DNA of 64,000 nucleotides, taken from assembly GCA_043818675.1 (NCBI GenBank), contig JBDRFR010000069.1:14877-78876 (forward strand), read 5' to 3'. Every line of letters starts with the position of its first letter. Positions within the stretch are counted from its first letter, which is position 1. The notes below the pieces were generated by a model. It worked only from the letters and a program-made list of their open reading frames with translations. It was not told where the DNA came from and made no database searches. The translations under genes and the position numbers were made by a program. This DNA is from Nanobdellota archaeon. GTDB taxonomy: Archaea > Nanobdellota > Nanobdellia > Woesearchaeales > DATDXC01. Of the stretch, positions 2,701 to 63,196 are shown one piece after another.

Positions 2701-2881
2701 TAAAGAGATACAAGTGCTAAAGCTAAGAAAAAAAGGGTTAAAACAGATAGAGATAGCAAAAGCGCTGAATATTTCCCAGCCTGCTATATCATCTTTTGAA
2801 CAAAACATTGCCCGCAAGATAAGATCTTCAGTTGAGGTATTAGGATTAGTCAAAGAGCTGGGCATTGATATTGAAAAATGA
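2690..2881 (+). CDS. Tfx-type HTH DNA-binding protein, tandem paralog (63 aa)
   Basis: 'FTDKEIQVLKLRKKGLKQIEIAKALNISQPAISSFEQNIARKI' is clearly paralogous to 2482..2700. Its stop overlaps the start of the 751-aa gene by 4 nt (ATGA), indicating an operon. Confidence 0.5.
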   Translation: MFTDKEIQVLKLRKKGLKQIEIAKALNISQPAISSFEQNIARKIRSSVEVLGLVKELGIDIEK

Positions 2882-5133: not shown

Positions 5134-5200
5134 GGCAAATACATATAAATTACAATATACAACTTAGTATGTACATATATACAACTATAGGTGAGAGGAT

Positions 5201-5704: not shown

Positions 5705-6303
5705 TCAGTGAAATACTGCCGCTTACCAAAAATAAACTTGAGATTTTTAAATATATTTACGAGAAAAAAGGGTCTCATCTTTTGGATATATCAAAAAATC
5801 TAAAAATACACCCTTATAGTGTTCAAAAGACCTTAAAGTCTATTAAGAAATTGTTTGTCGAGAAAAAAGCAGGAAGGACAATTATTTTGTCACTTGATAA
5901 GAACCTTCCAGGTTATTTTGAACTTCTTTATCTAATTGAGGACTATAAGCTTACAATTGATAGTAAAGATTTGAAAATACTGATAAGAAATCTGAAAGAA
6001 TTCTTCTCCAAAGATAAAAATGTGCTAAGTTGTGTTTTGTTTGGGTCATTTGCGCGGAATGTTTCTGGTGAAGATATTGATTTACTATTTTTGGTTAAGA
6101 AGAGATCAGATTATGTTATTGAAAAATGTTCCCAGCTTTCAACATTATTTGGAAAAGAAGTATCTCCTTTAGTCATGTTAGAAAAGGAGTTCAAGTCTGC
6201 TTTACAAAGTAAAGAGCCAACTATTATATCGATATTGGAGCCTTCTCAGCGGCTTTTGGTTGTCGGAAAAGAATACTTTTTGAGGTTTAGTTATGATGGA
6301 TAA
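5701..6303 (+). CDS. winged-HTH + minimal nucleotidyltransferase (MNT, Pol-beta superfamily) protein
   Basis: 'VLFGSFARNVSGEDIDLLFLV' gives the GS...DxD nucleotidyltransferase signature. N-terminal HTH-like region 'LEIFKYIYEKKGSHLLDISKNLKIHPYSVQKTL'. Confidence 0.65.
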   Translation: MISEILPLTKNKLEIFKYIYEKKGSHLLDISKNLKIHPYSVQKTLKSIKKLFVEKKAGRTIILSLDKNLPGYFELLYLIEDYKLTIDSKDLKILIRNLKEFFSKDKNVLSCVLFGSFARNVSGEDIDLLFLVKKRSDYVIEKCSQLSTLFGKEVSPLVMLEKEFKSALQSKEPTIISILEPSQRLLVVGKEYFLRFSYDG

Positions 6304-10500: not shown

Positions 10501-13500
10501 GACATTGTGGTCGGAGACCAAGCTGCTGTTAAAGGATATGATAACGATTCAACCAATCTATGGAATTTTAATTTACCCTCGGATGATATATCCTCAATCT
10601 CCGTAGGAGACATCGATAGCGATGGTGATAAGGAGATTATTGCAGGGGGCCTTACAGACGGTACAGTATGGGTACTTAATAGAACTGGCAGCTTAGAATT
10701 TAGCTATAAAATTGGAACCGGCCATATTGGAAATACCTTCTATGCAAGCTCTCCATCAACTGATATTTCTGATGTTAATAATGATGGAATAAATGATATA
10801 GGTGTTGGTATCTATCTAACTAGTGATGATAGTTATGGATATATCTTCCAGGACGTCTCCTGCACAATAAAATTCAACGATTCTGCAACTATTTATAACA
10901 TGACATGGGATTACGTTACTGACAAATGGAATTACTCAAGAACGTTTTCGAATAATGTTGTCTATGCATATAATGTAACCTGCAGTAAAGGTGGCTATGT
11001 AACTCAAATCCAGGAATCAACAGTTGATTTAACACAGACCTTAATAATATGGGACGACTCTAACTCAAAAGTAACATATGCAAATTACACCAAATTTTAT
11101 GCAAATTACACCAAATCAAACGGAACCCCATTGACAGGCAGCGGTGAATGGTGCGAGTTTGCATTCAATAAAACAGGCCTTAACTGGAGCTTTTATACCG
11201 CCTATAACATGAGCTATAATCCAACTACAAAATTATACGAGATAATTGCTGATGGCGGCTATATTAAAAATAACACAGAATCGCATATTGGCGGGATGCC
11301 TGTTGGCAATTATAGCTTTAATATTTCCTGCTATGGCGGCAAAAACTTAACAGCAACAGACACAGTAAATGTTGCTAAGTATGATACAGGTTTATCTTTA
11401 ACACAGTCAAATGTTCATGCTGATATTAACACAGATGTTGAGTTCTTTGCTAATTACACAAGAGATACTGTATGGAATGTGGACAACTGGTTCAGAGATT
11501 CAGGAGAAATTGGCAGAGTTATATGGAATAGCAGTGATGTTGGAAACAGTCTTGTTGCACTAAGACCAGCTGACTTATCTAATGACGGATATCTGTCTGA
11601 TATAGTTACAGTAAATGACTACAAGATTATTGCACACTATCAAAACGGATCAGTAAGGTGGACTTTTTCAACTGGAGTTATCCAACAGGCAGGATCCTTA
11701 AACATTGTCAATCTGGATAACGACGGATTTAAAGATGATATAATTACAAAATTCTCTTATAACATATTTGTCCTTAATAAGACTGGTGATCAACTAAACA
11801 AAACAACTGTTGCAGACGGCGGTTGGGGAATTGGAGTTGCTGGTGATGCAAATAATGACGGAATAGAAGATGAGTTAGTAGTATCAGGCGTAAATTCTAA
11901 TCCGGCAATATTATACAATATATCTAACAGCGGACTTTCTGTTGTTAAACAATGGAATTTTTCAGTACCAGATGATATGAGGGAAGTAATATTCGGAGAT
12001 TTTGACTCAGACGGTTTGGATGATGATTTTGCAATTAGTGGAGTTGATTCAGGAAAAGGAACTTATGTTTATAAATGGAACGGGACAAATTTATTTAATG
12101 TAACTTATGGTGGACTTGCTATTGCCAAAGCTGATATTGACCATGATGGTTTTGAAGATGATATAGTGATTGCAGAAAACGGCAATTATCTTGTTTATTC
12201 TTTTAATGGAAGCTATAATACAAAATACACAAGCACAGATGAAGCAATGGTATACAATACAGATCCAATATCAGTATCCGCAGAGATGATTGTACTGGAT
12301 TTGGATTCAGACGGATTTAATGATGACATCATACTGGGAGATAGAGGCGGAGCAGCTGGACCTGGAATTGTCTGGGCATTTGACAACAATAGTATTGGAT
12401 TGTGGAATATCACATTACCTGCAAACGGAGATGATGATTACATCTATTCCATGGTCGTTGATGATTTTAATAACGATGGTAAACAAGAATTGATCTTTTC
12501 CAGTGAAGAGTTTGATAAAGTTTATGTTGCCAATCTGTCAGGATATGTACTTTGGGACCAGATCATTGGACAAGGAGATATCTCAGTGATTAAAGGAAAA
12601 TCTCCTGGCATCATAAGTATTGACATAAATAAAGATGGAATTTCTGATTTTGCGACCGCTTCCGCAAATGGTTTTGTCCATGTTCTGCAGGACGTATCCT
12701 GCACAATCCAATATGAATCAGAAGGTGGAGAGATTAACAGGACTGGTCAGAATTGGGAAAATGGTTTAGTTGCTCTATATCATTTTAATAATGAGTCTGC
12801 ATATGGCGAAACAACTGTTGGAGTTAATAATGTAACGTATGACTTTGCACCAGGTCACTGTTATGATAACGAAACAGAAATACTAACTAATGAAGGCTGG
12901 AAATTATTTTCAAAATTAAATAAAACTGAGCAAGTAGCAACATTAAATCAGGAAACAAAAGAATTGGAATGGCAGCATCCAATGGAATATCAAGAGTTTG
13001 ATTATGACAATGATATGTATAAGATTATATTGGAGGATGGATCAGATTTACTTGTTTCAGAAAAACATAGGGTTTATGGAAAATCAGTAAGCATCATCGT
13101 GATGAGTGAAATCTTCAAAGATGATCTTATTTTCTCTGACCTGGAAAGTCAGGACAAAATGCCCCACATGAACTCTTTTGAGATGGCTCAAATCCCCTTT
13201 GAGGTTCTTAAGGTGATTGATGGTGACAATATCCATTTCAGAAATTTGGATAATTTTTCTACTCAAAGCTTTGAAGAGAACAGGGTCTTTTCTCTTAATC
13301 TTGATCAGAGCCTTATCAATCTTGGAAATGTCAATATTCATAATTCATCCAGCCACTTTTTTAGTTCTTCGGGAGTCATTGCCTTGCCTTTAGCTGGGTC
13401 TTTAGATATTTTCTTTAACTTTTCTATGAACTCAGGCTTCATAGGAAATTCATCTAATGGATGCCAGTCAATAGATTCACAAAACTGCTCATCTTCCCTA

Positions 13501-49729: not shown

Positions 49730-50911
49730 ATGGATTTACAATTAATATCAGCAATAATTTTTTCAGTATGTTTGGCTTTTTTTCTTGTATGGAAAAGAAA
49801 AAATTTAGCTGTTCAAAAAATTTTTTTCCCGGTTTTATATTTTGTCATGTATCGCACAAAAATCGGCCTTAAATTAATGGATACTATCTCTAAAAAGTAT
49901 GGAAAATTACTAAAATATTTAGGATATATTGGCATTTTTATTGGATTTTGTGGAATGGTCTTCTTATGTTTTACTTTATCAAAAAATCTGGTGATTTTAT
50001 TAACAAAACCAGAGGCAGCATCTGCTGTTGGCTTGGTTCTTCCTTTCAAGGTCAAAGGAGCATTCTTTGTGCCTTTTTTTTACTGGATAATCTCAATTTT
50101 TGTGCTTGCCGTAGTGCACGAATTTTCACATGGTGTCGTAGCCAGGTATTACGGCTTAAAAATCAAATCAAGCGGTCTTGCATTTTTATGCTTAGTCCTT
50201 CCTGTAATTCCGGCGGCGTTTGTTGAGCCCGACGAAAAAAAAATGGCAAAGCTTTCCACAAAAAAGCAGTTAAGCATTTTTGCAGCTGGCCCATTTTCAA
50301 ACATTATTCTTGCATTTATTGTATTACTATTGTTTAACTTCACACTAGCGCCATTTCTTCAGTCAATGATGTACGAAGACGGTATCAAAATTACCGGTTA
50401 TATTGAAGACAAAACTTATCCTGCGCAGGAAGCAGGCATTGAAATTGGTGAAGTAATAAAAGAAATTAATGGAGCAGAATTCAAAACACTAGACGATTTT
50501 TCAGCATTAATCCAAAATGAAAAGCCAGGTGATCAAATCCAGTTAACAACCAATATCAAAACTTATGATATTACTCTAACAGAAAATCCTGAAGATGAAA
50601 AAAAGGCATATTTGGGTGTTTATTTAATACAAAACTATGAAAAAAAAGACTGGGCAAGAAAAGGTATAGCGTTTTATATTAGTGTATTGACTACCTGGCT
50701 GGGCGGGCTTTTTTATTGGCTTTTTGTTTTAAACCTTGGAATCGGGTTATTCAATCTTATCCCTATTGGTCCGATTGACGGAGGCAGGATGCTGCATGCT
50801 GTATTGTTAAAATATTTCTCTAAGGACAGGGCCCAAAAAATCTGGAAATATACAGGGACTTTCTTTTTCCTTTTAGTTCTTACAAATGTTATGTTTGGTT
50901 TTATTCGATAA
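49730..50911 (+). CDS. site-2 protease family (M50) intramembrane metalloprotease with PDZ domain
   Basis: Multiple TM segments. 'VVHEFSHGVVARYYG' (HExxH). Second Zn-ligand region 'NLIPIGPIDGGRMLH'. PDZ-like segment 'GIKITGYIEDKTYPAQEAGIEIGEVIKEING'. Confidence 0.8.
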   Translation: MDLQLISAIIFSVCLAFFLVWKRKNLAVQKIFFPVLYFVMYRTKIGLKLMDTISKKYGKLLKYLGYIGIFIGFCGMVFLCFTLSKNLVILLTKPEAASAVGLVLPFKVKGAFFVPFFYWIISIFVLAVVHEFSHGVVARYYGLKIKSSGLAFLCLVLPVIPAAFVEPDEKKMAKLSTKKQLSIFAAGPFSNIILAFIVLLLFNFTLAPFLQSMMYEDGIKITGYIEDKTYPAQEAGIEIGEVIKEINGAEFKTLDDFSALIQNEKPGDQIQLTTNIKTYDITLTENPEDEKKAYLGVYLIQNYEKKDWARKGIAFYISVLTTWLGGLFYWLFVLNLGIGLFNLIPIGPIDGGRMLHAVLLKYFSKDRAQKIWKYTGTFFFLLVLTNVMFGFIR

Positions 50912-50922
50912 GGTTTTAGGAT

Positions 50923-51762
50923 ATGCAAAACATCAAGTCCGAATCAAAAATTGCATGGAAATTATTTAAAGACATTTTGATGCTTCCCGTTAATCTTCTT
51001 CTTCTGGTGTTTGGTAAAAAAAGCATATCAGATGTTTTAAGGCCAGTATCCGACATTTTCAGATTTATATTTGAAGCAAAGGTTACCATTTGGCTGGTCA
51101 TATTAAATATTATTATATATTTTGGAGTTACTTTCCTGTTAATCACTGGCATTATTGAAGAGTCTTTTATCGATTTGTATTTTATTGGGACAACCAGGGG
51201 TTTTTTGAACCTGGATTTCCCGCCTTTAATTGGTTCTTGGTTTTTCCACGCATCAGTCTTTCATTTGTTTGGAAATATGTTATTTTTGTTTATATTAGGA
51301 AGGGTTGTTGAAAAAGAGCTGGGCGGGCCTAAAACTCTGCTTATTTATTTTGGTGCGGCTATTATTTCCACGGTTGCAGACAATTTGGTCCATATTTTCA
51401 TCATACCTATTAAAGATTATGCAGTAGTCGGCGCATCTGGCGCTATTTCAGGTTTAGGCGGTGCAGCATTACTGCTTAGCCCTTTTTACTTAACTTATCT
51501 TGTTGTTGGAATACCATTGCCTATTATTTTTGTGGTTTTGCTTCAGATATACACTGATATTACAGGTGTTTTAAATCCAACATCAAACATTGGCCATATT
51601 GCACATCTAACAGGCTATTTATCTGTTGCAATTACTATGTTTCTTCTTAGCAAAAATGATAGAAATAAAATGAAAAAAGGACTGTTTATATGTATAATTA
51701 CTGTTATAGCGTCTATCTTAGTATTTATATTTGCAAATAGATTTATTGGCCTGCAGATTTAA
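50923..51762 (+). CDS. rhomboid-family intramembrane serine protease
   Basis: Catalytic 'GASGAISGL' (GxSG) and 'HIAHLTGY' (catalytic His) lie in TM helices. 6-7 predicted TM segments. Confidence 0.8.
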   Translation: MQNIKSESKIAWKLFKDILMLPVNLLLLVFGKKSISDVLRPVSDIFRFIFEAKVTIWLVILNIIIYFGVTFLLITGIIEESFIDLYFIGTTRGFLNLDFPPLIGSWFFHASVFHLFGNMLFLFILGRVVEKELGGPKTLLIYFGAAIISTVADNLVHIFIIPIKDYAVVGASGAISGLGGAALLLSPFYLTYLVVGIPLPIIFVVLLQIYTDITGVLNPTSNIGHIAHLTGYLSVAITMFLLSKNDRNKMKKGLFICIITVIASILVFIFANRFIGLQI

Positions 51763-51785: not shown

Positions 51786-52526
51786 CTACGTTAATTCTAC
51801 ATAAAAGTAATAAACAGTTGACGCATCATCATCTCCGTTATCTGCAACCAGCATCTGAAAATCCCATATATTTCCGTCAAACCCTACTGTATTTTGGCTG
51901 ACTTCTGTTGCATATATCACTGTATTCTGATTATATTCTGTAAGTATTGTTTCATTAAAATAACTGGTCTGCGCCCCATTATTATCATACGTATTTGTTG
52001 AACGGCAGTTTAGGAGCTCCCTTGTACCGATTGTAATATTGCTGTATCCTCTGAAAGTCTCATCTATTCCGTCACTATCAGAGCTCGCCATGCCGTACAT
52101 TGACTCAAGCGTTGTATGATTGATTCCCTGTGTTCCAATAGAGCCATTGCCGCTAAAGTTTACACAATTAACATTGCCCCAATCTACTACCGTATTGTTT
52201 GCAGCATATATTTCACCGACCGGAGAAAAGCTTGAACCACCTGTCCAATCAAACATTGTATTGCCGCTTGCATCACCAAGGACAACTTTTCCGGAGATAT
52301 TACCATAGTATCCCTGCCATCTTTTTGTAACAATTGTAGTATTAATTGTAAGTTGCGTTACATTGCCTGCCTGTGCTCCAAGAGCCTGCGGATCCCCTGT
52401 TATATTAGTTCTGCTCGTAGTAACATTTTCAATAGAAGTAGGGCCATATGGATTGGCTAGAGTGATAGGTATTAAAATCGCTGCCACTAATAAAATTATT
52501 GCAATTCTTTTCATTGTTGTTTTCAT
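51786..52526 (-). CDS. secreted ~245-aa protein, paralog 4 of a tandem array
   Basis: Signal peptide 'MKTTMKRIAIILLVAAILIPITLA'. Conserved core 'RWQGYYGNISGKVVLGDASGNTMFDWTGGSSFSPVGEIYAANNTVVDWG.V.CVNFSGNGS.GTQGINHTTLESMYGM...DGIDETF...NCRSTNTYDNNGAQTSYFNETILTE...TVIYATEV.Q...GFDGN.WDFQMLVADNGDD.ASTVYYFYVEL'. Confidence 0.75.
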   Translation of the reverse strand: MKTTMKRIAIILLVAAILIPITLANPYGPTSIENVTTSRTNITGDPQALGAQAGNVTQLTINTTIVTKRWQGYYGNISGKVVLGDASGNTMFDWTGGSSFSPVGEIYAANNTVVDWGNVNCVNFSGNGSIGTQGINHTTLESMYGMASSDSDGIDETFRGYSNITIGTRELLNCRSTNTYDNNGAQTSYFNETILTEYNQNTVIYATEVSQNTVGFDGNIWDFQMLVADNGDDDASTVYYFYVELT

Positions 52527-52722
52527 TATAGCAAAGGACGTATTTTTACGAATAGCTGCATATCCTCAACAAAAGTGCATTATGTCCGCTATCATATCTG
52601 AAAACAATCACGCTTTCGTTTACATTCACATTTAATTACGTTTACGTTCACAATCCAAAGTAAGCATGAAGGATCTAAGGCAGTTGCCAAAATGTTTTAG
52701 ACACACCCTTAGTCCGTTGAAT

Positions 52723-53460
52723 TTATGCAAGTTCAACATAAAAGTAATATGCTGTCGCAAGTCCGTCACTGCCGTCATCAGCGACGATCATTTGAAAATC
52801 ATAGCTATTGCCATCAAAACCAGTTGCATCCTGGTCAACTTCTGTTGCAAAAATTACAGTCCCTTGAGATCTTTCTGTTAAAAGAGTCTCATTAAAGTAA
52901 GTGCTTTGAGCGCCATTATTATCGTATGTATTTGTTGCATGGCAATTCTGAAGCAGTGTTCCGGCTATTGTAATGTTATTCAAAGTACTAAACGTTTCAT
53001 CAATACCATCATTATCAGAACTTACCATACCAAACATAGATTCAAGTGCTGTTTGATTGATTCCTTGTGTTCCCACAGAACCGTTTCCGCTAAAATTAAC
53101 ACAGATAACATCACCCCAGTCCACAATTGTGTTGTTTGCAGCATAAATTTCTCCAATTGGTGAAAAGCTTGAATCAGCAGTCCAATCATACATTGTATTG
53201 CCGCTTGCATCACCTAAGACCACTCTTCCAGAAATATTACCAAAATAACCTTGCCAATTGCCGGTTGCTTGTGAGATATTAATCTCAAGTTTAGTATTAT
53301 TCCCTCCGTACGCGCCCAGACCCTGCGGAGCTCCCGCACTCGTATTGGTTTTATAAGTAGTTACATTTTCAATGGTTGTTGGCCCCCACGGTGCTGCTGT
53401 TACAACTGAACATAATACACTAATCACTAATAATCCTATGAGTAATATTCTCGTTGTCAT
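52723..53460 (-). CDS. secreted ~245-aa protein, paralog 3
   Basis: Signal peptide. Same conserved core, ending 'AYYFYVELA'. GGAGGAAT Shine-Dalgarno-like motif upstream. T-rich run after the stop. Confidence 0.75.
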   Translation of the reverse strand: MTTRILLIGLLVISVLCSVVTAAPWGPTTIENVTTYKTNTSAGAPQGLGAYGGNNTKLEINISQATGNWQGYFGNISGRVVLGDASGNTMYDWTADSSFSPIGEIYAANNTIVDWGDVICVNFSGNGSVGTQGINQTALESMFGMVSSDNDGIDETFSTLNNITIAGTLLQNCHATNTYDNNGAQSTYFNETLLTERSQGTVIFATEVDQDATGFDGNSYDFQMIVADDGSDGLATAYYFYVELA

Positions 53461-53588
53461 TTTATTCCTCCATAATTACGCTTTCATTTACATTTGCGCA
53501 TAACAAAAATTATGCATGTTCAGCATAAAACTATATTCTTGTCTTCGTTTTTACCCTCATCAATTAAGTTGTGTAGGCATAACAAAAA

Positions 53589-54332
53589 TTATGCAAGCTC
53601 AACATAAAAGTAATAAGCTGTCGCAACTCCATCGCTGCCATCATCAGCAACAATCATCTGAAAGTCCCACTTGTTACCATCATATCCGGTAGCATCCTGG
53701 TCAACTTCTGTTGCAAAAATCACAGTCCCCTGCGATCTTTCTGTCAAAAGTGTTTCATTAAAATAAGTGCTCTGAATGCCGTTATTATCATACGTATTTG
53801 TGGCCCGGCAGTTCTCAACCATTGTTCCGGCTATTGTAATATTATTTATGCCAGTAAACGTTTCATCAATTCCATCTGTGTCTGTCGCACCCATACCATA
53901 CATAGATTCAAGTGTTGTATGATTAATTCCTTGCGATCCAATAGAGCCATTACCGCTAAAATTGACACAGATAACATCACTCCAGTCCACAATTGTTGCA
54001 TTAGCTGCATAAATTTCACCTATTGGTGAAAAGCTTGAACCAGCTGTCCAGTCATACATAGTATTGCCGTTTACATCACCCAAGACAACTTTTCCGGAAA
54101 TGTTACCAAAATAACCCTGCCAATTGCCCGTTGCTTGTGAGATATTAATTTCAAGCTGAGTATTATTCCCTCCATGTGCGCCAAGCGCCTGTGGAGTGCC
54201 GATACTCGTATTAGTTTTATAAGTAGTTACATTTTCAATGGATGTTGGCCCCCATGGTGCAGCCATCACAACCGAACATAATACAGTTATTACAAACAAC
54301 CCCAAAATCATTATTCTGATCTTCATTTTCAT
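53589..54332 (-). CDS. secreted ~245-aa protein, paralog 2
   Basis: Near-identical at nucleotide level to paralog 1 over long stretches. Signal peptide 'MKMKIRIMILGLFVITVLCSVVMAAP'. GGAGGAAATG upstream. Confidence 0.8.
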   Translation of the reverse strand: MKMKIRIMILGLFVITVLCSVVMAAPWGPTSIENVTTYKTNTSIGTPQALGAHGGNNTQLEINISQATGNWQGYFGNISGKVVLGDVNGNTMYDWTAGSSFSPIGEIYAANATIVDWSDVICVNFSGNGSIGSQGINHTTLESMYGMGATDTDGIDETFTGINNITIAGTMVENCRATNTYDNNGIQSTYFNETLLTERSQGTVIFATEVDQDATGYDGNKWDFQMIVADDGSDGVATAYYFYVELA

Positions 54333-54367
54333 TTCCTCCTTTTTATAATTTCAATTCATAACAAAAA

Positions 54368-55120
54368 TTATGCAAGCTCAACATAAAAGTAATAAGCTGT
54401 CGCAACTCCATCGCTGCCATCATCAGCAACAATCATCTGAAAGTCCCACCTGTTACCATCATAACCAACAGTATCCTGGTCAACTTGCGTTGCATAAATT
54501 ACTGTGCCTTGCGTCTTTTCTGTCAAAAGTGTCTCATTAAATTTGGTGGTTTGAACACCATTACTATCATATGTATTGGTCGCCCAACAGTTATCAATCA
54601 ATGTTCCAGCTATTGTAATGTTATTAATGCTGTTAAACGTTTCATCAATTCCATCAGTATCTGCTGCAAGCATACCATACATGGATTCAAGTATTGAATT
54701 GTTAATACCTGGAGGATTTGATCCATCAATAGAGCCGTTTCCAGTCAAGTTAAGACAAATAACGTCACCCCAGTCCACAATTGTTGCATTAGCTGCATAA
54801 ATTTCACCTATTGGTGAAAAGCTTGAACCAGCTGTCCAGTCATACATAGTATTGCCGTTTACATCACCCAGGACAACTTTTCCAGAAATGTTACCAAAAT
54901 AACCCTGCCAGTTACCCGTTGCTTGTGAGATATTGATTTCAAGCTGTGTATTATTTCCCCCGTGTGCGCCCAGCGCCTGTGGAGTGCCGACACTCGTATT
55001 AGTTTTATACGTAGTTACATTTTCAATGGATGTTGGCCCATACGGCGCAGCCATCACAACCGAACATAATACAGTTATTACAAACAACCCCAAAATCATC
55101 ATTCTTATCTTCATTTTCAT
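54368..55120 (-). CDS. secreted ~250-aa protein, paralog 1 (start trimmed from the track ORF 54368..55228 to the Met aligned with the other paralogs)
   Basis: 'MKMKIRMMILGLFVITVLCSVVMAAPYGPTSIENVTT' aligns with the paralog 2 start. AAGGAGGAA lies immediately upstream of 55120. The upstream 36 codons of the track ORF lack a signal peptide. Confidence 0.75.
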   Translation of the reverse strand: MKMKIRMMILGLFVITVLCSVVMAAPYGPTSIENVTTYKTNTSVGTPQALGAHGGNNTQLEINISQATGNWQGYFGNISGKVVLGDVNGNTMYDWTAGSSFSPIGEIYAANATIVDWGDVICLNLTGNGSIDGSNPPGINNSILESMYGMLAADTDGIDETFNSINNITIAGTLIDNCWATNTYDSNGVQTTKFNETLLTEKTQGTVIYATQVDQDTVGYDGNRWDFQMIVADDGSDGVATAYYFYVELA

Positions 55121-55248
55121 TTCCTCCTTTTTTAAATTTTTAATAATGTGTAAGCAAAAAAAAAGGGATTCAAGGCAGAAATCAAAAAGACGTGCGAGGT
55201 GTTTTAGATGTTCCCCTTGTTCTCCCAATTAATATAATACTCTAAATT

Positions 55249-55881
55249 TTAGTTATCACCCCTATCCTGGAATATACCTTTAATATCATATAATATTTGA
55301 AAAGAAGACATCTGCCCTTTTTTGATACCTTTTTCAATTTCTTCCGGGGTTATAATTTCCACCCTAAAATTCTTCAATCCCTGGTTTTGTTTTTTTATTG
55401 ATACGTCTTTAATCTTTTTCTCCAGTTCTTTTGGGAATACTGTCCCAATCATAACATCTACGTTATCGCCGCCTGGTCTAATTGCTATTATTTCAATTTT
55501 GGATAAATAATCTTCAATGCCCCAGACAAATTTTTCAATGTAATATTGGAATTCTTGATCAGGCAGAAACATAATCTTAAACAAAATTTTATGCATACCA
55601 TCAACTTTTACTAGTTTTTTATCGGCAAACCCGTTCATTATAGAAATAACATAAGCATAATCCTCAGGGATATAAAATAGTGTTCTTGGCTTTCCTTTAT
55701 CTCTGTTTGGTATTTTCTTTTTTTTGACCATGTTTGAAAATTCCAGAAGTCTTAATTGTTGGCTGATATTTGCCATTGTAGTGCTTGACTTTTCTGCAAG
55801 CTGCAAAGGAGAAAATTTACCTTTTGCAAGTTCTCTTAGAATATTCCACTTCTGTTCTGTGAATAATGTTACAAGGTCCAT
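55249..55881 (-). CDS. winged-HTH (ArsR/MarR-like) transcriptional regulator with C-terminal sensor-like domain
   Basis: 'WNILRELAKGKFSPLQLAEKSSTTMANISQQLRLLEFSNMV' is an HTH segment. It is the first gene of the minus-strand block that precedes the 4-paralog array. Confidence 0.6.
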   Translation of the reverse strand: MDLVTLFTEQKWNILRELAKGKFSPLQLAEKSSTTMANISQQLRLLEFSNMVKKKKIPNRDKGKPRTLFYIPEDYAYVISIMNGFADKKLVKVDGMHKILFKIMFLPDQEFQYYIEKFVWGIEDYLSKIEIIAIRPGGDNVDVMIGTVFPKELEKKIKDVSIKKQNQGLKNFRVEIITPEEIEKGIKKGQMSSFQILYDIKGIFQDRGDN

Positions 55882-56096: not shown

Positions 56097-58421
56097 TTAT
56101 TTATACAGGCTATCTTCAATAACTGCGATTGTATCTTCTTTTGTTTTTGCTGCTCGGAGTTTTTCTGCTGTCTCTTTATCTGACCCCATGATCCAGTCTG
56201 CAAAAATATTTTCAGATTCAGATGCATGCGCTGCATACGTTCCTTCATCCATAGTATTGATTTCATCAATCAATTCCTGCGGCGATGATACGGTAACTCC
56301 GTTCTTAAGCTTCAATGGTGGCAGCTTTTTTTGTTCTTTTTTCTTTTCTTGTTTTGCAGCTGCTTTTTTTGCCTCTTCTGGATGTTCTTTTTCGAATTTT
56401 TCCCTTTCTTTTTTAGCCTTTTCAAATTCTTCCTGCAATTCTTTTTCAGAAACAAGCTTCAGTTTTCTCTTCTTAGCTTGTTTGCCAATTTTATCCCATG
56501 CAGTGTCAAGCCTAGGTTTTAAGCCTTCCAGATAAATATCAACCATGTTAAAACTGCCAGACTTAACTTTATCAAGCGCCATCTTAAGTTCCAGTTTTAG
56601 ATCAAAAATATCAACCTCTTCCTCTCTAAGCTGTTCAATCTGATCATCCAGATCGTCTATTATATCATTATACTTATTGTAATTATCAAGTTCTTCGTCT
56701 GTTAATCTTGCATGTTCATGTAAAAGAGGCCTAAAACTTACAAAATAAGGATTGCCTCTGTTATATGCAGAATTTGAAATCATCCCTGTGCCTGTTGCAG
56801 ACTTCAGTAGAGATTGCAGCATGTAAGACCCATATTTATCTTTTATCCTGTTCAAATCGCCTTCATCACGTGTACGCATTTGAATTTCTGTATTAATATT
56901 TGCTTTTGTTTCACCTATAAAATCTGTCAGAACCTGGCTGATCAACACAAGGCCGACCCCCCATTTTCTAAATTCTCTTGCGCCTCTTTCAATTTGGATA
57001 AAACCCTGTCCGGTTCCGCCGAATTTTGGCAGCAGTCTGTGAACCTCGTCAAAAATTACAATAAGCCTTAATTGCGGGCTTTCTGGCAGGTCGGCGTGAA
57101 ATACTTCTCTGATTGTATTGGCTACAAGTATATCACTGTCTTTGGGATCAAGTTTATTGATAGCAAAAACGTGAATTTCACCAGGAATTAAGTATTTTTT
57201 TATATCAATGATCTGGCGAGCATCCATAATCTGGTGCACATTCCCGTTAAATGCTCTTGCATCCGTTTTCTTGAGTCCGTAACTAGGATACAAAGCTATC
57301 ATTTTTTTATTCGTGCATTTTCTAAGAAAGCCTGTCCACTGCGCTGTTGGGTCAAACACTATAATCGCAACTCCTTTTAACAGCGCTTCTTCTACAAGAA
57401 CTTCCGCAGAAACTGTCTTTCCACCGCCTGTTGAACCGGCAATTAGGCTGTGAATTGTCAGCTGATCCATATCAAAATACGCTTTAACTTTTGATTCAGC
57501 AATTTTTCCGATAAGAATCGACCGCTCGCCAGGTTTTGGCAGCAATTTAAAGTCAATTTTACCTTTATATCTTTTCTTTTTAGCAAGCCTTTTGCGTATT
57601 ATTAAAAATACTAATGCAGCTATTGCAAGAAAAGATAGTGTTAATAACAGCCATCTCACAGGCATTATCCCAAAAATCAGATAATCCCATATCGGTTCAC
57701 TTACTAAGAATCTCGCGCTTGCAGTTGATGATATCCCCAGATAATCCACGCGAGCTGTAATTACATACTCACCCGGTCTGATAAATTCAGGTACTTCAAA
57801 AAATTTTATAAGAGTTGTTGACTTATTAAGTCTTAAGTTCTCAGTTTCTTCCAGAAAAGTTTTGTTGACCAGATAAGTTTTTTTATCTGCCATGCTGTCA
57901 ATCGAATAATGCAAAGTAATATTAAATCCATCTTTCAATAAAAGATTATGAATATTAATCTTATACCTTAAAGTATCCTTAAGATATACTCTTTCTGATA
58001 ATGGCTCAACTTTGATAGAAATTGCGCTAATAGGAACTCCGCTAATATCCCCTACTGTTAGCATTGCAGGTATTCTTTCATTGACATTTCCGGATAAGAC
58101 TAATGTTCCGTTAAAAAAACCCATGTTATCAGCAAAAAATAAAATTTTGGCATCTGCACTTGATTTTGCCTCAAGATTAATAGTCGTCACATCAGGCACC
58201 ATATAACTGCTGATGTTGCCCTCTGATGAAAACATTACCGTTATTGGATTATCGCCTTTATTTTCAATGGTAAGCACATGCTCTTCGAATTTGCCTATTT
58301 TAACATTTTTAATTATTATATCATCCGATATTCGATAATTGCTATTTTCAATTTGTGCAGCAACATTTATAGACATTAATATTACTATTATTACTATCGC
58401 AAAACCTCTATTTTTTATCAT
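56097..58421 (-). CDS. membrane protein: extracellular beta-sandwich domains, one TM helix and a cytoplasmic HerA/FtsK-superfamily ATPase (standalone paralog of the giant protein's C-terminal module)
   Basis: Signal peptide 'MIKNRGFAIVIIVILMSINVAA'. Two Ig-like domains. TM 'VRWLLLTLSFLAIAALVFLII' followed by 'RKRLAKKKRYK'. Walker A 'LIAGSTGGGKT', 'IIVFDPTAQWTGFLRKC', Walker B 'LIVIFDEVHRLLPKFGG' and 'REFRKWGVGLVLISQVLTDF' are collinear with giant aa ~11330-12098. K/E-rich tail. Start overlaps the stop of the 1342-aa gene by 4 nt. Confidence 0.8.
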   Translation of the reverse strand: MIKNRGFAIVIIVILMSINVAAQIENSNYRISDDIIIKNVKIGKFEEHVLTIENKGDNPITVMFSSEGNISSYMVPDVTTINLEAKSSADAKILFFADNMGFFNGTLVLSGNVNERIPAMLTVGDISGVPISAISIKVEPLSERVYLKDTLRYKINIHNLLLKDGFNITLHYSIDSMADKKTYLVNKTFLEETENLRLNKSTTLIKFFEVPEFIRPGEYVITARVDYLGISSTASARFLVSEPIWDYLIFGIMPVRWLLLTLSFLAIAALVFLIIRKRLAKKKRYKGKIDFKLLPKPGERSILIGKIAESKVKAYFDMDQLTIHSLIAGSTGGGKTVSAEVLVEEALLKGVAIIVFDPTAQWTGFLRKCTNKKMIALYPSYGLKKTDARAFNGNVHQIMDARQIIDIKKYLIPGEIHVFAINKLDPKDSDILVANTIREVFHADLPESPQLRLIVIFDEVHRLLPKFGGTGQGFIQIERGAREFRKWGVGLVLISQVLTDFIGETKANINTEIQMRTRDEGDLNRIKDKYGSYMLQSLLKSATGTGMISNSAYNRGNPYFVSFRPLLHEHARLTDEELDNYNKYNDIIDDLDDQIEQLREEEVDIFDLKLELKMALDKVKSGSFNMVDIYLEGLKPRLDTAWDKIGKQAKKRKLKLVSEKELQEEFEKAKKEREKFEKEHPEEAKKAAAKQEKKKEQKKLPPLKLKNGVTVSSPQELIDEINTMDEGTYAAHASESENIFADWIMGSDKETAEKLRAAKTKEDTIAVIEDSLYK

Positions 58422-61400
58422 TTTGACAGTTTCTCTCTCAACTCACCGCATTTCTTAATAACTTCTGATTTATACTCCGGAACAATTTTTTTGTAAATCT
58501 CATTGACTTTGTGATAAATTTCAACTGCTTCAGTTCGCTTATTATTTTCCAATTTGGATATGGCTTTGTCAATAAGGCTCTTGATATGAAACACATCCAG
58601 TTTATATGATAATGCCACAACACTTTGATAGACTTCTTTTCTCATCTCCTTTGGAAGTTTAGAATATGAACTCTGTGAATCCAGATATAGCGATTTGGCC
58701 CGATCATATTTCCCGTCATTAAGCTCTTTTTTAGCATTTTCAATGTTATTTTTTATACTGTCAACATTCTTTAAAGATGCCCGATCCAGAATATGATATT
58801 TAATATTAGTTCCTTTTAGAGTATAACCAAGGTACAAAAGTACAAGAATAATTATAACAAAAACCTCAATAACAATCCGTCTATCGCTTGTCGTAACGAA
58901 TTTTGACTTAAGATTATCGATTACTGCAAACCCGGTAATTGGCGAGAGTTCTGGTTTTTGGCCAGGATCCATAATCACAGAAACTGTAGTTTGTATTTTT
59001 TCCAGCTCAATTTCATCTTGAACGTAATAAGCAATACTTTCCGCTTCTTCTAAGCTAAGCTCAATAATGGGATCTTCTTCAATTACACTGTATTCAAACA
59101 TAAATTCAATATCATTAACGCTTTCTGCTATTTCTTTTGGGATATATTCAATCATAATATATCCATTCGAATCCAAGTCCAGGCTAAAAGCTTTTTCAAC
59201 CAGTGTATATCTCTCTTTATCATTGGATAAATATTCCAACTCAACCACAAAAGCTTTGGTTGTGACTGTCAGAAGTGATTGAAGTTTAGAATTTTGCTCA
59301 ACTACATTATTAATTTCCCTTTTTGTATATTTCTTATTTTTTTTATTCAAATACGCTAATGTTAGATTCCTGATCTCTTCTGCCTTAGGATACACAACAA
59401 ACTCCTTTGAGTCCAGAACTTTCAGGTCGGTGGGTATTGCATCCCGGATATTTGCGATTTCTGCATATATTGCATTTTCTTCCTTTTCATACTCAGTATC
59501 ATTCAGTTTTCTCCATATTAGATTGTTTAAGTCTCTTTTATATCGTGTAAGTTTAACTTTTGATTTGTCAAGTTTGACAAAAATCCCAAGAATATCCATA
59601 ACCTCTTTTTCAGTTTTGCCCTTTTTTTGAAATTCCTGATAAATTTGGTCAATTTTTGAGATCAGCGGATCAATCTCTGTGTTATCCTTATTTAACGTTT
59701 TCCCGAATAAATAAACAATAAATGTCCTTGTAGAGCTTATCTCAGAATTTCCGTGTTCATCTGTGCATTTAATTCTATACTCATAGCTTCCATTCTGAAG
59801 AGAAGTTATGCTAAATTTGTTCTCAGAGCCTTTTAAAACATTGCTTTGGCTCTCCTTTTCTATCCACCAGCTGCTATGTTCATTGATATTAAGCGCGCAA
59901 TCCACATTAGACTGATCTTCCACTCGATACAATATTTCAACACTGGTTCCTTCAATTCGCTGTTGGTCTGGTGGATTTAACAATGTTACAACAGGCCCTT
60001 TTTTGTCATTTGTATCAATTGACAAATTCACATAAAGAGTTGTATCCGCAAAAACTCTTACACTATCGTTTATATAAGTATTATAGCCGTCATGTTTCAC
60101 TTTTAATTTATACGTGCCGTAATACACCAAAAAACTGGTTTTGCCTTCCGATGTTGTATTCTTGATAACAGTATCAAACTCTACATCAGCATTTCCCACA
60201 TTTTGTTTAGAGACATTATTAACAATGATTGTAACATTGAACCTTTTTTTGACAATGATTGTTTCAATATCTGATGCCTTTTGCGCGCTGTCTGTTACAG
60301 TTAGGTTTACTTTATAAGTTCCATTTGTTGCATATGTTTTTACAAGTTCAGATGAATAGCTGTCAATAGACTTATCATTTGAAATATCCCATTGATAGGT
60401 AAGTGATCCTGTATGCCCGCTTACTATCGGAACAAATTTAACAGTTTCCCCTTCATTTATTGTGGTTTTATTGGCGCTGATCTGCACGCTGAGCGTTGAT
60501 GTGGGTGGATAAACAATAAAGCTTACTATTTTACTTTCACTATTTCCTTTGTAATACGATGTTGCATTCAGGGTATATGTGCTAGGCGAATTAATATTAT
60601 CAAGAATAGTTGTTACGTATATTGGATAATCCGAAGAATAGCCGGTTATTGACTTCCTGCTTACAACAGATCCGCCTGTTTTAACAGTCATATTGACTAT
60701 AGAATTCGCTCTTGATATGATTGTTGCTGCGATATCTTCACCTAATTCATAATTACTTTTATCCAGACTAATTGAAAAGCCTACACAATTGCCGCATTGT
60801 CCGCCGCAATCAATGCCTGTTTCACCACCGTTTTTAATACCGTCTAAACACGTTGCAGAATAACTAAAACTAAAAGAATAGCTGTATAGTTGATTATTGC
60901 CCTGCATATCAGTAGCATTTATTAAAAGAATATTTGCACCTGTCTTTAATTCCAATGTGATTGATTTTTCTTTGCCAAAATATGCCTCAGTGCTGTACTG
61001 TCCATTATTCAACTTATATGAGATAAACGCATATTCATTTGGCCGCAGCTTTAGATTGGTAATATTGCTGGAATTAGTTACTACACTATTATTCACAGGA
61101 ATGCTATTATAAGTTAGGTTTATTTTAGGAGCCGCATCATCATTAACGCTAAAACTATAATTGTATGTCAATATATTGGAATTATTATCATTAAGGCTGA
61201 TTGTTACAATATGTGCACCATTTTCAATCACGCCATTAGAAAAGCTGCCATTAAGTAGCACTGAAAAAGTTTTTGACTCAGGCAATGCTGCATATCTCTG
61301 ATTTTTAAACGATATATTTGCATATACAGGGATATCAGTTGAAAAGTTCAGATAAACATTTTCCCCGCATTTCAAAGGGCTGACGGGTGAATTGATTGTC

Positions 61401-62446
61401 AAATTTAGTTCAGACATATTAAGCGCCACAATTATTGATGAAAAGTGTGAAACATATACTTCCAGCTTATCTCCATTTTTGTGATAGCATCCTTGCGCTC
61501 CAAAATCACATTCAGGCAGTTTAACACATTCAAACGAGTCTGAACAATGCAGAACTTGGTTATAGATAATTCCCGTTATATTAAATTCCACGCGTCCCTG
61601 GTATCCTTCCTCAAGTATAACTTTCTCGATACCGCTAACTTCTATCGACTTTCGGACTATTGATCCCAAATTTTCAATATGATTTCTTAAATTCTCATCT
61701 TCTTTACTGATAGTTATTTTATCCAACTCTTCAAATTGAATATTATTGCTCTTAAAATTTTCAATACTGACAATATCACCTCCGTGGTACATATCCAGCC
61801 TCAGGTTTTGATTATGAAAATCTGATACAGCCGAACCCCCCTTTAAGTCTGTAAGTGAGATTTTACTAAGCTTATTATTTTTCTTCAGCCTCTCCAGTTT
61901 TTCAATCACAGAAAATTCTTTACTCGAAGGCTGCTTTCCATTAAAATAATCTTCATCAAGAAATACCGCATATAGATAATCATAATTACTGTAATATATT
62001 TCTGAATAGGGGTTTTCTGAGCTTACCGAATAATCAACATATAATACTCGCGCGCTCACCTTATTATTAACCGACGCATCATATTGCCCGTAATTAAGAT
62101 AAAAAATATCATTCCATTTATTCTTAGTTGCAGTAAGTCCAATAAAATTACAGCAAACATTGTTCCCATAACAAACTGTTGTCATTTTGTTTGTATCAAC
62201 GGACAATATTTCCCATCTTGTGCACAGCTTATTTTTGTTAAGATCCCAGTTGAACTCTGTATCTTCAACAGTAAAGTCAATTACACTTTTATCACCTTCA
62301 ACCCCGTCAGAATTATTGTCATAATATTTATCATTCTGATATTTAAGATTAATCTGAATTTTTTCAGATTCTGCGCAAATTACAGAAAGATTAAGCGCTA
62401 TCATTAGTAAGATTAGACAGCCCAAAATCTTAGAGTATTTCTTCAT
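58418..62446 (-). CDS. large surface protein (1342 aa): Cys-rich N-domain, Ig-like/PKD domains, C-terminal TM and cytoplasmic helical tail
   Basis: Signal peptide 'MKKYSKILGCLILLMIALNLSVICA'. 'NKLCTRWEILSVDTNKMTTVCYGNNVCCNFIGL...FYLNYGQYDASVNNKVSARVLYVDYSVSSENPYSEIYYS' is paralogous to the 751-aa protein's N-domain. PKD motif 'SLTYQWDISNDKS...TYATNGTYKVNLTVTDSAQ'. Cys cluster 'CLDGIKNGGETGIDCGGQCGNC'. TM 'VIEVFVIIILVLLYLGYTL'. Confidence 0.8.
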   Translation of the reverse strand: MKKYSKILGCLILLMIALNLSVICAESEKIQINLKYQNDKYYDNNSDGVEGDKSVIDFTVEDTEFNWDLNKNKLCTRWEILSVDTNKMTTVCYGNNVCCNFIGLTATKNKWNDIFYLNYGQYDASVNNKVSARVLYVDYSVSSENPYSEIYYSNYDYLYAVFLDEDYFNGKQPSSKEFSVIEKLERLKKNNKLSKISLTDLKGGSAVSDFHNQNLRLDMYHGGDIVSIENFKSNNIQFEELDKITISKEDENLRNHIENLGSIVRKSIEVSGIEKVILEEGYQGRVEFNITGIIYNQVLHCSDSFECVKLPECDFGAQGCYHKNGDKLEVYVSHFSSIIVALNMSELNLTINSPVSPLKCGENVYLNFSTDIPVYANISFKNQRYAALPESKTFSVLLNGSFSNGVIENGAHIVTISLNDNNSNILTYNYSFSVNDDAAPKINLTYNSIPVNNSVVTNSSNITNLKLRPNEYAFISYKLNNGQYSTEAYFGKEKSITLELKTGANILLINATDMQGNNQLYSYSFSFSYSATCLDGIKNGGETGIDCGGQCGNCVGFSISLDKSNYELGEDIAATIISRANSIVNMTVKTGGSVVSRKSITGYSSDYPIYVTTILDNINSPSTYTLNATSYYKGNSESKIVSFIVYPPTSTLSVQISANKTTINEGETVKFVPIVSGHTGSLTYQWDISNDKSIDSYSSELVKTYATNGTYKVNLTVTDSAQKASDIETIIVKKRFNVTIIVNNVSKQNVGNADVEFDTVIKNTTSEGKTSFLVYYGTYKLKVKHDGYNTYINDSVRVFADTTLYVNLSIDTNDKKGPVVTLLNPPDQQRIEGTSVEILYRVEDQSNVDCALNINEHSSWWIEKESQSNVLKGSENKFSITSLQNGSYEYRIKCTDEHGNSEISSTRTFIVYLFGKTLNKDNTEIDPLISKIDQIYQEFQKKGKTEKEVMDILGIFVKLDKSKVKLTRYKRDLNNLIWRKLNDTEYEKEENAIYAEIANIRDAIPTDLKVLDSKEFVVYPKAEEIRNLTLAYLNKKNKKYTKREINNVVEQNSKLQSLLTVTTKAFVVELEYLSNDKERYTLVEKAFSLDLDSNGYIMIEYIPKEIAESVNDIEFMFEYSVIEEDPIIELSLEEAESIAYYVQDEIELEKIQTTVSVIMDPGQKPELSPITGFAVIDNLKSKFVTTSDRRIVIEVFVIIILVLLYLGYTLKGTNIKYHILDRASLKNVDSIKNNIENAKKELNDGKYDRAKSLYLDSQSSYSKLPKEMRKEVYQSVVALSYKLDVFHIKSLIDKAISKLENNKRTEAVEIYHKVNEIYKKIVPEYKSEVIKKCGELREKLSK

Positions 62447-62748
62447 TTACTAGCCTCAATCTTAAGTTGATTTTTGATCTCATTTAATTCACTGACCACT
62501 TTCTTAGTGACTTCTTTTTCACTCTTTTTTCTAATTTCATCCATGATATCCTTTCTTAATCTTGCAACCTCTGCAAGTTCTGGATACATCGATTTTAGCC
62601 AATTTTTTCTGGTAATGCTCCTAATCTTTTCACTAACGTCCATATAGTGCTCTTTTTCAGCGAGCTCTTTAAGTTTAGACAATAATGATTCAGGCATCCT
62701 TACAGAAACCAGGACATCACTCAAACAAATCACCCTTATCACAAACAC
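62443..62748 (-). CDS. small RHH/CopG-like DNA-binding protein (possible operon regulator; true start may be the internal Met)
   Basis: 'VRMPESLLSKLKELAEKEHYMDVSEKIRSITRKNW' shows a beta-strand plus two-helix RHH pattern. Its stop overlaps the start of the 1342-aa gene by 4 nt. Confidence 0.4.
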   Translation of the reverse strand: MFVIRVICLSDVLVSVRMPESLLSKLKELAEKEHYMDVSEKIRSITRKNWLKSMYPELAEVARLRKDIMDEIRKKSEKEVTKKVVSELNEIKNQLKIEASK

Positions 62749-63196
62749 TGTCTCTGGAAAATTCCCTGATAGCTTCAGCTCTGCTTTTATATACCCCTTT
62801 AGAAACCATATAATCCAGCCATTCCACTATTTCTTTTGACAATCTTATGTTAAAAATAGCCACTTTCATTTTGTATTCACAATGATATTTATTGTATGCC
62901 CCTTGTATTTTAATTAATCATTTAAATATTTTTCGGTATTATTACAAACGATTAGTTAAATTAAGAGATAATTTGTAATTGAAATAATACTTATATGTAT
63001 GTTATATGTAATTCAAATAAAGATTATATAAACCTTTTGATTTTAGATAAATTCCAACATATTAATCAAATTATTAATCAAATAAATAAATTAAGTAATT
63101 AATAAATCAGTTAATTATAATAAAAATTTTTCATATGAATATTGAAATTCATCAAATATACATAATTTTAAATATTAGATAACCCTAACAAGCTTA
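62749..63196. promoter_or_regulatory. divergent AT-rich intergenic region between the minus-strand surface-protein operon and the plus-strand genes
   Basis: About 450 nt, extremely AT-rich, with repeated 'aattaat/attaatcaaat' motifs. No ORF and no tRNA-like GC stems. Confidence 0.3.

Follow-up and report, generated by a model that had tools for sequence, protein, structure and literature searches.

The 64,000-nt stretch of archaeal DNA analysed here, referred to as the window, carries at positions 51786-55881 a tandem array of genes for four paralogous secreted proteins. We use FAM as the name of the secreted protein-domain family of these four paralogs. By sequence comparison, FAM is linked, through both genomic neighbourhood and domain fusion, to membrane ATPases that resemble SPEARE, the giant surface protein of nanohaloarchaea. 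FAM is predicted to be a secreted domain family of extracellular type, and it is without a detectable known relative in sequence or fold. We tentatively propose, as a quite possible reading, that FAM proteins are the building blocks or adhesive units of a surface apparatus anchored by SPEARE-like ATPases.

Five co-directional genes on the minus strand occupy 51786-55881: a gene for a winged helix-turn-helix (wHTH) protein, followed by the FAM genes p1, p2, p3 and p4. An earlier note on this stretch had reported four tandem genes for secreted paralogs of ~245 aa, headed by a wHTH gene and adjoining an ATPase operon. All were found when ORFs were called in the window and in related loci, with the four proteins measuring 245-250 aa and being encoded between 51786 and 55120. 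NCBI annotates the four as hypothetical proteins ABIC04_04055-04070. The array and the adjoining operon comprise the following, in window coordinates.

55249-55881, minus strand: wHTH protein, 210 aa, with a putative ArsR/Lrs14-like N-terminal winged helix and a ~130-aa C-terminal domain without family assignment
54368-55120, minus strand: FAM paralog 1 (p1), 250 aa, with a Sec-type signal peptide, a GGAGG ribosome-binding site and a T5 run 3′ of the stop codon (NCBI ABIC04_04070, hypothetical protein)
53589-54332, minus strand: FAM paralog 2 (p2), 247 aa, with GGAGG and a T5 run 3′ of the stop; the copy used for modelling
53498-53533, minus strand: degenerate FAM 3′-end remnant, 36 nt, with 89% identity to p2 across its final codons, stop and following bases (repeat family D3)
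52723-53460, minus strand: FAM paralog 3 (p3), 245 aa, with GGAGG and without a T-run after the stop
51786-52526, minus strand: FAM paralog 4 (p4), 246 aa, the most divergent copy, with neither GGAGG nor T-run
56097-58421, minus strand: HerA/FtsK/VirB4-superfamily membrane ATPase, 774 aa, with a signal/membrane helix, an Ig-like outer domain, a membrane helix (residues 257-275), the ATPase and a coiled-coil tail
58418-62446, minus strand: PKD/Ig-rich membrane-anchored surface protein, 1342 aa, its stop overlapping the ATPase start; syntenic in related loci L004, L007, L008, L010 and L036
62443-62748, minus strand: small ribbon-helix-helix (RHH)-like protein, read by eye, heading the PKD-ATPase operon, its stop overlapping the PKD start
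62717-62869, minus strand: second small ORF, with CopG-like sequence by eye

The FAM profile matched residues ~56-247 of 12 long HerA-type ATPases (1118-1327 aa), with hmmsearch E values of 1e-11 to 4e-5. According to hhalign, FAM and the N-terminal domain of the long ATPases matched with a probability of 98.7-98.9% (E = 3e-16 to 3e-17). In an alignment of 167 columns (98.7%, E = 3.6e-16), the segments aGnvT-L, W-G-YG, EIYAS, TF, DFQML and YYF were recognizable. A hidden Markov model (HMM) built solely from 11 ATPase N-terminal domains found the window's four paralogs in turn (E = 5e-15 to 1e-8; hhalign 98.9%). The long ATPases comprise, in order, an N-terminal hydrophobic helix, the FAM-like domain, Ig-like domains, a membrane helix and the ATPase. 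Because it follows the N-terminal helix and precedes the Ig-like domains and the membrane helix, the FAM-like domain is predicted to be the outermost part of the ectodomain. In these fusions, the FAM C-terminus runs on into further domains; a free C-terminal strand is therefore not obligatory.

Gene context was compared across the window and 80 related loci, two of which (L001 and L002) are on the same contig, leaving 79 independent contigs. A HerA-type ATPase was encoded within 10 kb of FAM in 22 of the 80 related loci (21 independent contigs), and in about half of those with long flanks. Together with the 12 ATPase fusions, these data bear out the earlier suggestion that the array is connected with the adjacent membrane ATPase and giant-protein system.

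Many large proteins, secreted or anchored, likewise have FAM as their very last domain (among them cluster c13, P0183, P0187, P0217, P0257 and P0189, the last being a 1,635-aa beta-helix protein that ends in a FAM domain). A Nup98-type S59 autopeptidase-like domain (PF04096) was detected in the FAM-ended proteins P0187, P0189, P0219, P0231, P0257 and P0258 with E values of 3e-7 to 2e-4, P0187 alone passing the curated cut-off and most of the others falling slightly under it. The S59-like domain sits upstream of FAM with the motif H-F-S or S-F-S, and the sequence F-N-V-Q-H-F-S-A-Y-S resembles the H-F/S self-cleavage site. The arrangement suggests that the FAM-bearing end of these large proteins is released by autoproteolysis. 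A comparable H-F-S motif in the window's PKD protein (L-E-V-Y-V-S-H-F-S-S, residues ~330-345) was rejected as an autopeptidase motif: it had no Pfam support at E <= 10 and may be due to chance.

The features of the FAM proteins themselves are those of exported proteins. Signal peptides were assessed by inspection rather than with a dedicated predictor. The cleavable signal peptides described in the earlier note were recognizable as Sec-type: an n-region rich in K/R precedes 15-17 hydrophobic residues, Ala is conserved at −1 (V-M-A/A-P in p2), and a conserved x-P-x-G-P directly follows the predicted cleavage site. An N-terminal hydrophobic segment is present in 170 of 176 full-length FAM members of the related loci. 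The hydrophobic stretch precedes the predicted cleavage site, and the predicted mature protein begins with x-P-x-G-P and is beta-rich, in agreement with the earlier statement that there is no class III (pilin-type) signal. An archaeal type IV pilin or archaellin was ruled out on the same two counts, the lack of a class III leader and the beta-rich mature protein.

N-glycosylation sequons occur at 4.4-4.5 per 100 aa in the paralogs and at 4.8 per 100 aa in the window's giant surface protein, described below, versus 0-1.0 per 100 aa in the window's proteins of cytoplasmic or membrane-embedded function. Residue N56 is invariant in FAM and lies inside a conserved G-N-x-T sequon. The mature protein has a pI of ~4.05 and contains a near-invariant pair of cysteines. 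A D-x-D-G-x-x-E-T-F motif is 80-90% conserved and, judging from its residues, may bind Ca2+. The C-terminal strand, Y-Y-F-Y-V-E-L, ends exactly one residue short of the stop in 153 of the 176 members.

FAM homologues were sought among 5.8 billion proteins, 1.84 billion cluster representatives (50% identity) and one genome per GTDB species. The first search yielded 171 homologues, none of which had a precomputed Pfam domain. Those with a named source are all hypothetical proteins from bins labelled Nanoarchaeota, Woesearchaeota, Nanoarchaeia or Pacearchaeota, except for two labelled just 'bacterium'. Among the cluster representatives, the FAM profile matched 1,468 at E <= 1e-3, 1,069 at E <= 1e-10 and 496 at E <= 1e-30, and the GTDB species representatives contained 338 FAM-encoding stretches, frequently several per assembly. 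FAM is thus known solely from metagenome bins, nearly all of them DPANN-labelled. Several FAM-bearing metagenome-assembled genomes (L005, L009, L013, L016, L021 and others) are titled 'uncultured Methanosarcinales archaeon', and two 'bacterium'. Because these loci show a DPANN-type gene order, the labels are probably artefacts of binning or naming.

No match to Pfam was obtained for the four paralogs or for 79 FAM homologues, and none to NCBIfam for FAM. Against PDB sequences, two family profiles returned only noise (E >= 0.12). A published description of FAM was not found in the literature on DPANN surface and giant proteins and on HerA/VirB4-type ATPases.

To characterize the predicted fold, AlphaFold2 models were made of full-length p2 (79 sequences; pLDDT of 74) and of mature p2 (147 sequences; pLDDT of 82.9, pTM of 0.80). 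In the latter, the core of ~11 beta-strands and two short helices was modelled with confidence, and both models are consistent with the beta-rich character that the earlier note had ascribed to the secreted proteins. Mature residues 11-40 had a pLDDT of 45-57 despite containing the conserved motif A-x-A-G-N-V-T-x-L. This conserved N-terminal arm of ~30 residues, which was not confidently placed in the monomer, is a candidate intermolecular element. Searches with both models by Foldseek against a copy of the PDB complete to April 2026 yielded nothing significant: the best matches, at E = 0.39 and 0.72, were to polyomavirus VP1, with a probability of 0.03-0.05, and are not evidence of relationship. 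Likewise, no significant match was found among the BFVD viral structures. The Foldseek search with one paralog that the earlier note had called for thus upheld the orphan status of FAM, and the family, which that note could not recognize, escaped Pfam, NCBIfam, PDB sequences and Foldseek against the PDB alike.

Within the array, pairwise amino acid identities between the paralogs are 63-87%, with a mean column identity of 84%, far above chance; p4 is 63-66% identical to the other three. The near-identity of p1 and p2 at the DNA level had been overstated: they share 88% of nucleotides overall and 94% across the first 100 codons. Pairs containing p3 share 78-82%, and pairs containing p4, 65-68%. 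The start of p1 is the ATG at 55120, behind GGAGG; a 286-aa ORF called from a TTG start is an upstream extension. Of the signals previously attributed to every copy, GGAGG precedes p1, p2 and p3 but not p4, and a T-run follows p1 and p2 but not p3 or p4.

For every paralog pair with a finite dS, dN/dS was 0.13-0.18. The four copies are intact and, given these ratios, maintained by purifying selection. The degenerate 3′-end remnant that had been noticed between p2 and p3 is real. Together with the graded divergence of the copies, it makes the proposal of ongoing duplication and decay a reasonable one, although decay does not extend to the four genes, which are all intact and selected. The p3 leader, aatgtaaatgaaagcgtaattatgg (53465-53500), reappears in degraded form on the minus strand ~100 nt 5′ of p4 (52600-52660). 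As judged from the sequence, this degraded copy upstream of the GGAGG-less p4 would be a second trace of duplication followed by decay.

FAM includes a subtype A, with the motif W-Q-G-Y-[FY]-G-N, and more divergent types, such as B, with W-K-G-Y-V-G-N and a Y-Y-F-W-A-E-L end. The window's copies are all of A type and none of B. Elsewhere, A- and B-type genes may overlap, as at 337-1859 and 4432-5897 of locus L018 and in many loci of the third layout described below; such overlapping pairs suggest a hetero-oligomer. An apparent 490-aa tandem FAM fusion in L018 was rejected, as it consists of two overlapping genes, one of each type.

The wHTH protein matched known regulators below the curated cut-offs: HTH_20 of Pfam (E = 0.003; 17.9 bits, cut-off 27), and ArsR/SmtB (26 bits, cut-off 55) and Lrs14 (20.8 bits, cut-off 90) of NCBIfam. 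Among PDB sequences, only MarR was returned, at E = 0.87. Counting the window, 56 of 58 wHTH genes had a co-directional FAM gene as their immediate downstream neighbour (median gap, 18.5 nt). In every locus where subtypes were listed, the gene right after wHTH encodes an A-type FAM. The gene that follows FAM is another FAM 45 times, c2 44 times, wHTH 26 times and c4 12 times, and a 20-kb locus may hold up to 6 FAM copies. The recurrent clusters, obtained by all-against-all BLAST of the ORFs and counted in the related loci only, with the window left out, are as follows.

FAM: 177 members in 80 loci; the family under study
wHTH: 57 members in 54 loci; regulator-like partner
c2: 69 members in 46 loci; ~327 aa, N-terminal membrane anchor, sequon-rich
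c3: 26 loci; 560 aa, signal peptide and C-terminal anchor
c4: 24 loci; 366 aa, polytopic, H-E-A-G-H motif
CC: 21 loci; coiled-coil protein
HerA-type ATPase: 21 loci; membrane ATPase
PKD-type protein: 20 loci; surface protein
c8: 20 loci; 398 aa, signal peptide and C-terminal anchor
c11: 15 loci; double HTH protein of sigma-70-region-4 type

Clusters c2, c3, c4, c8 and c14 had no match in Pfam, and an hhalign comparison of FAM with c2 was not significant (30% probability). Three layouts recur. The first, RHH-PKD-ATPase-wHTH-FAM-c2, is the window's type and is common to L004, L007, L010 and L011. The second is ATPase-CC-FAM-wHTH-FAM-c4. The third consists of a large protein ending in a FAM-like domain, then FAM-FAM-c2-HTH-FAM-wHTH-FAM-FAM-c2. 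The RHH-like gene of the window (cluster c27) is conserved 5′ of the PKD gene in L010, L036 and L081. Convergent to the FAM array, at 49730-51762 (plus strand), the window has genes for a rhomboid protease and for an M50 protein that resembles site-2 proteases and contains a PDZ-like region. Because these genes adjoin the array, and the H-E-A-G-H protein c4 occurs in 24 loci and directly follows FAM 12 times, an intramembrane protease may belong to the FAM system.

The window contains a second ATPase module of the same kind.

7519-43815, plus strand: SPEARE-like giant protein, 12,098 aa
43858-44919, plus strand: coiled-coil protein, 353 aa, directly after the giant ORF; partner of the HerA-type ATPase (cluster CC)

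The giant ORF encodes Laminin_G_3 (concanavalin A [ConA]-like lectin) and FG-GAP domains, among others, in its N-terminal part, and membrane helices at residues 16-34 and 11617-11635. Its last 800 aa matched DUF87, HerA_C and FtsK, the C-terminal 600-700 aa being a HerA-type ATPase with paralogs at 56097-58421 and in the related loci. CC proteins are rich in lysine and glutamate and have weak SMC-like matches, and their gene is the conserved immediate downstream neighbour of the HerA-type ATPase gene; many loci have a second coiled-coil gene, c9 (~110 aa), interposed. Just 5′ of the giant ORF, at 5201-6303 (plus strand), a HEPN-domain gene overlaps a nucleotidyltransferase (Polbeta/NTP_transf_2) gene; from its sequence, the pair looks like a HEPN-MNT toxin-antitoxin system. 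Further upstream, ORF 2878-5133 (plus strand) encodes a 751-aa sequon-rich membrane protein that shares with the PKD protein at 58418-62446 a cysteine-rich N-terminal module, C-T-R-W-x-[IV]-L-S-[VL]-D ... V-C-Y-G-x-x-x-C-C-N-F-I-G-L. In 15 of the related loci, the C-terminal portion of ORF 2878-5133 is found again, a few kb 3′ of FAM.

The proposal that FAM proteins build or equip a surface apparatus can be set out as a sequence of steps. FAM would be exported by the Sec pathway, and its signal cut after the conserved Ala to leave an x-P-x-G-P N-terminus. The protein would then be heavily N-glycosylated and adopt an acidic, disulfide-bonded, beta-rich fold. Outside the cell, it would bind to membrane-held partners through FAM-FAM or FAM-anchor contacts. 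Candidate partners are the c2 protein, which is anchored at its N-terminus, the large surface proteins that end in FAM and, in some lineages, the outer domain of the ATPase where it is FAM-like. The wHTH protein encoded directly upstream would be the dedicated regulator of each FAM cassette, and the window would represent an expanded cassette in which one regulator gene is followed by four A-type FAM genes arising from recent tandem duplication. We infer glycosylation, Ca2+ binding, assembly onto anchors, regulation by wHTH and a role in host contact from these gene and protein features.

A more specific and rather unlikely version of this proposal is that A- and B-type FAM polymerize on the FAM-like outer domain of the ATPase or on c2. 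This would yield a novel kind of archaeal surface fibre or conduit, seated on a cytoplasmic pumping ATPase and without relation to type IV pili, TasA-like fibres or Ced/Ted conjugation pili, and it might serve host attachment or exchange in DPANN archaea.

Several observations weigh against FAM as a subunit held by ATPase-based anchors. In roughly half of the long-flank loci, a HerA-type ATPase is missing from the 10 kb around FAM. In the window, the outer domain of the short ATPase is Ig-like and not FAM-like (hhalign 2.1%), and no c2 homologue was found in the 64 kb, save for a weak match inside the PKD gene; accordingly, no anchor was found in the window itself. A FAM-like domain was also not found by hmmsearch --max and hhalign in the window's short ATPase, PKD protein, giant protein or ORF 2878-5133. 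In the model of mature p2, the first 10 residues have a pLDDT of 75 and form a beta-bridge, and the FAM N-terminus may thus dock onto its own core and not onto a neighbour. Finally, no solved fibre subunit matched the FAM models: TasA, AbpA, CanA and thread entries, which that copy of the PDB should contain, were absent from the top 50 Foldseek hits.

A somewhat unlikely but serious alternative is that FAM proteins do not polymerize and are lectin-like or receptor-binding adhesins, released or loosely held at the surface, that bind host glycans or proteins, with arrays broadening the specificity. This would fit the distal position of FAM, which caps ATPase ectodomains N-terminally and large secreted proteins C-terminally, as well as the many diverged copies per genome, up to 6 in a 20-kb locus. 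The window's giant protein carries ConA-like lectin domains, and the DPANN archaea cultivated to date need host contact, as described in bioRxiv 10.1101/2023.02.24.529834. The top Foldseek matches are glycan-binding jelly rolls (polyomavirus VP1 and soybean agglutinin), but these fold matches are statistically meaningless. Moreover, the dN/dS values indicate purifying selection with no sign of diversification, and the most conserved positions include those of the unplaced arm, which better suits protein-protein contact than a glycan pocket.

An S-layer or outer sheath, one of the roles considered in the earlier note, is improbable and gained no specific support. In its favour, FAM is secreted, acidic and sequon-rich, strong ribosome-binding sites precede three of the window's four copies, and genomes encode several copies. 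However, FAM has no membrane anchor, and the anchored, signal-peptide-bearing proteins c3 (560 aa) and c8 (398 aa) encoded in the same loci are at least as fitting for an envelope layer. Its occurrence as the terminal domain of ATPases and large proteins is atypical of a lattice protein, and its mass of 25 kDa also counts against that role, as this would be small for an archaeal S-layer protein.

It is very unlikely that FAM is a secreted enzyme of unsolved fold, such as a glycan or peptide hydrolase. Conserved acidic residues (the D of D-x-D-G, the D of D-F-Q-M and the E of V-E-L) and the beta-helix (pectate-lyase-like) domains of some long relatives would be compatible with catalysis, but no enzyme family was matched in Pfam, NCBIfam, PDB sequences or Foldseek, and tandem paralogs accompanied by anchors and regulators better suit structural proteins. 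Least credible is that FAM is a cargo, a role named in the earlier note, or an effector, exported by the adjacent HerA/VirB4-type ATPase in the type-IV-secretion-like manner proposed for SPEARE proteins: the genomic linkage to the ATPase and the unknown effector secretion proposed for SPEARE-like proteins (PMC10266531) speak for it, but FAM has its own Sec-type signal and dense N-glycosylation sequons, and the fused FAM-like domain lies outside the membrane helix in the same polypeptide, unlike a substrate.

A PRD1-like pairing of a jelly-roll capsid protein with an FtsK/HerA packaging ATPase, an idea taken from PMC4158269, was also considered and rejected on account of the Sec signals and dense sequons of FAM. 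Further grounds for rejection were the membrane ATPase that carries FAM on its outer side and the housekeeping neighbours, namely an eRF1-domain release-factor-family gene and, read by eye, histone-fold and aIF5A genes.

In bioRxiv 10.1101/2023.02.24.529834, DPANN archaea are described as having small cells and reduced genomes, all cultivated ones being ectosymbionts that need contact with a host cell. How they attach to and exploit their hosts is largely unexplained. To our knowledge, there are almost no molecular candidates for DPANN host contact outside the halophilic lineages that have SPEARE. The FAM loci offer a candidate gene set for host contact, comprising a 25-kDa secreted subunit, a regulator, a membrane anchor and an ATPase.

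Compared with known assembly systems, the FAM loci resemble those of chaperone-usher pili in encoding several subunit paralogs and large proteins with a C-terminal subunit domain behind a variable N-terminal part, as in FimH and PapG. By contrast, there is no similarity in sequence or fold, and the analogy is one of locus logic only. There is also no usher or periplasmic chaperone, since archaea have no outer membrane.

The TasA superfamily, taken here as TasA, AbpA, AbpX, the cannula proteins CanA and CanX, the Saci_0406 threads and Tafi, is closer in several respects. Its members, like FAM, are secreted subunits of ~20-25 kDa with Sec-type signals, encoded as several paralogs, and are beta-rich, acidic (AbpX-like proteins having a pI of ~4) and glycosylated, glycosylation of FAM being predicted only. 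Besides the main subunit, archaeal fibre loci of this superfamily may encode minor ones, large proteins of the tip, transcription factors and a membrane anchor (bioRxiv 10.1101/2024.12.30.630787; 10.64898/2026.01.04.697558). The FAM loci follow the locus logic published for Tafi and AbpX fibres, in which paralogous subunits are accompanied by regulators, a membrane anchor and large proteins that have the subunit domain at their end. By analogy, the N-terminal arm of FAM could serve as a donor strand, as in this superfamily. By contrast, PF12389 (TasA) had no match among 79 FAM members in hmmscan even at E <= 1, the family profile matched no PDB sequence of the superfamily, and neither FAM model yielded a Foldseek match to it. 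No gene for signal peptidase I was seen next to FAM, though none was systematically searched for, and FAM is linked to a HerA-type ATPase, for which chaperone-free fibres have no need. Because neither sequence nor fold agrees, and a Sec signal on a ~20-25-kDa subunit is the only defining feature found, FAM is not placed in the TasA superfamily; by analogy, it may still work like such a fibre subunit. If FAM does polymerize, it would represent an additional kind of archaeal surface fibre.

SPEARE of nanohaloarchaea comprises a signal peptide, ~75 Ig-like domains, a membrane helix, a VirB4/TraG-like ATPase and a coiled coil (PMC10266531; also PMC6642349), and its authors proposed that it binds the host and secretes unknown effectors (PMC10266531). 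The window's giant protein has the same plan: an N-terminal signal, a very long outer part rich in lectin and Ig domains, a single membrane helix and, on the cytoplasmic side, a VirB4/HerA-like ATPase. At 12,098 aa, it exceeds the nanohaloarchaeal protein of 9,409 aa that PMC10266531 names as the largest of any cultivated archaeon. The coiled coil is part of the same polypeptide in SPEARE, whereas in the window it is encoded by a separate gene after the giant ORF. The PKD and ATPase pair beside FAM resembles a split, smaller version of SPEARE. The published description of SPEARE does not include FAM; the FAM arrays, the wHTH gene and the FAM-ATPase fusions occur in bins labelled Woesearchaeota, Pacearchaeota and Nanoarchaeota (GTDB Nanoarchaeota) and not in nanohaloarchaea. 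What is new here is a sizeable family, ~1,470 clusters at 50% identity, that is tied to ATPase-anchored giant surface proteins. Its links suggest that the SPEARE-like ATPase serves as the base on which a surface apparatus of several proteins is built and is not a stand-alone giant adhesin.

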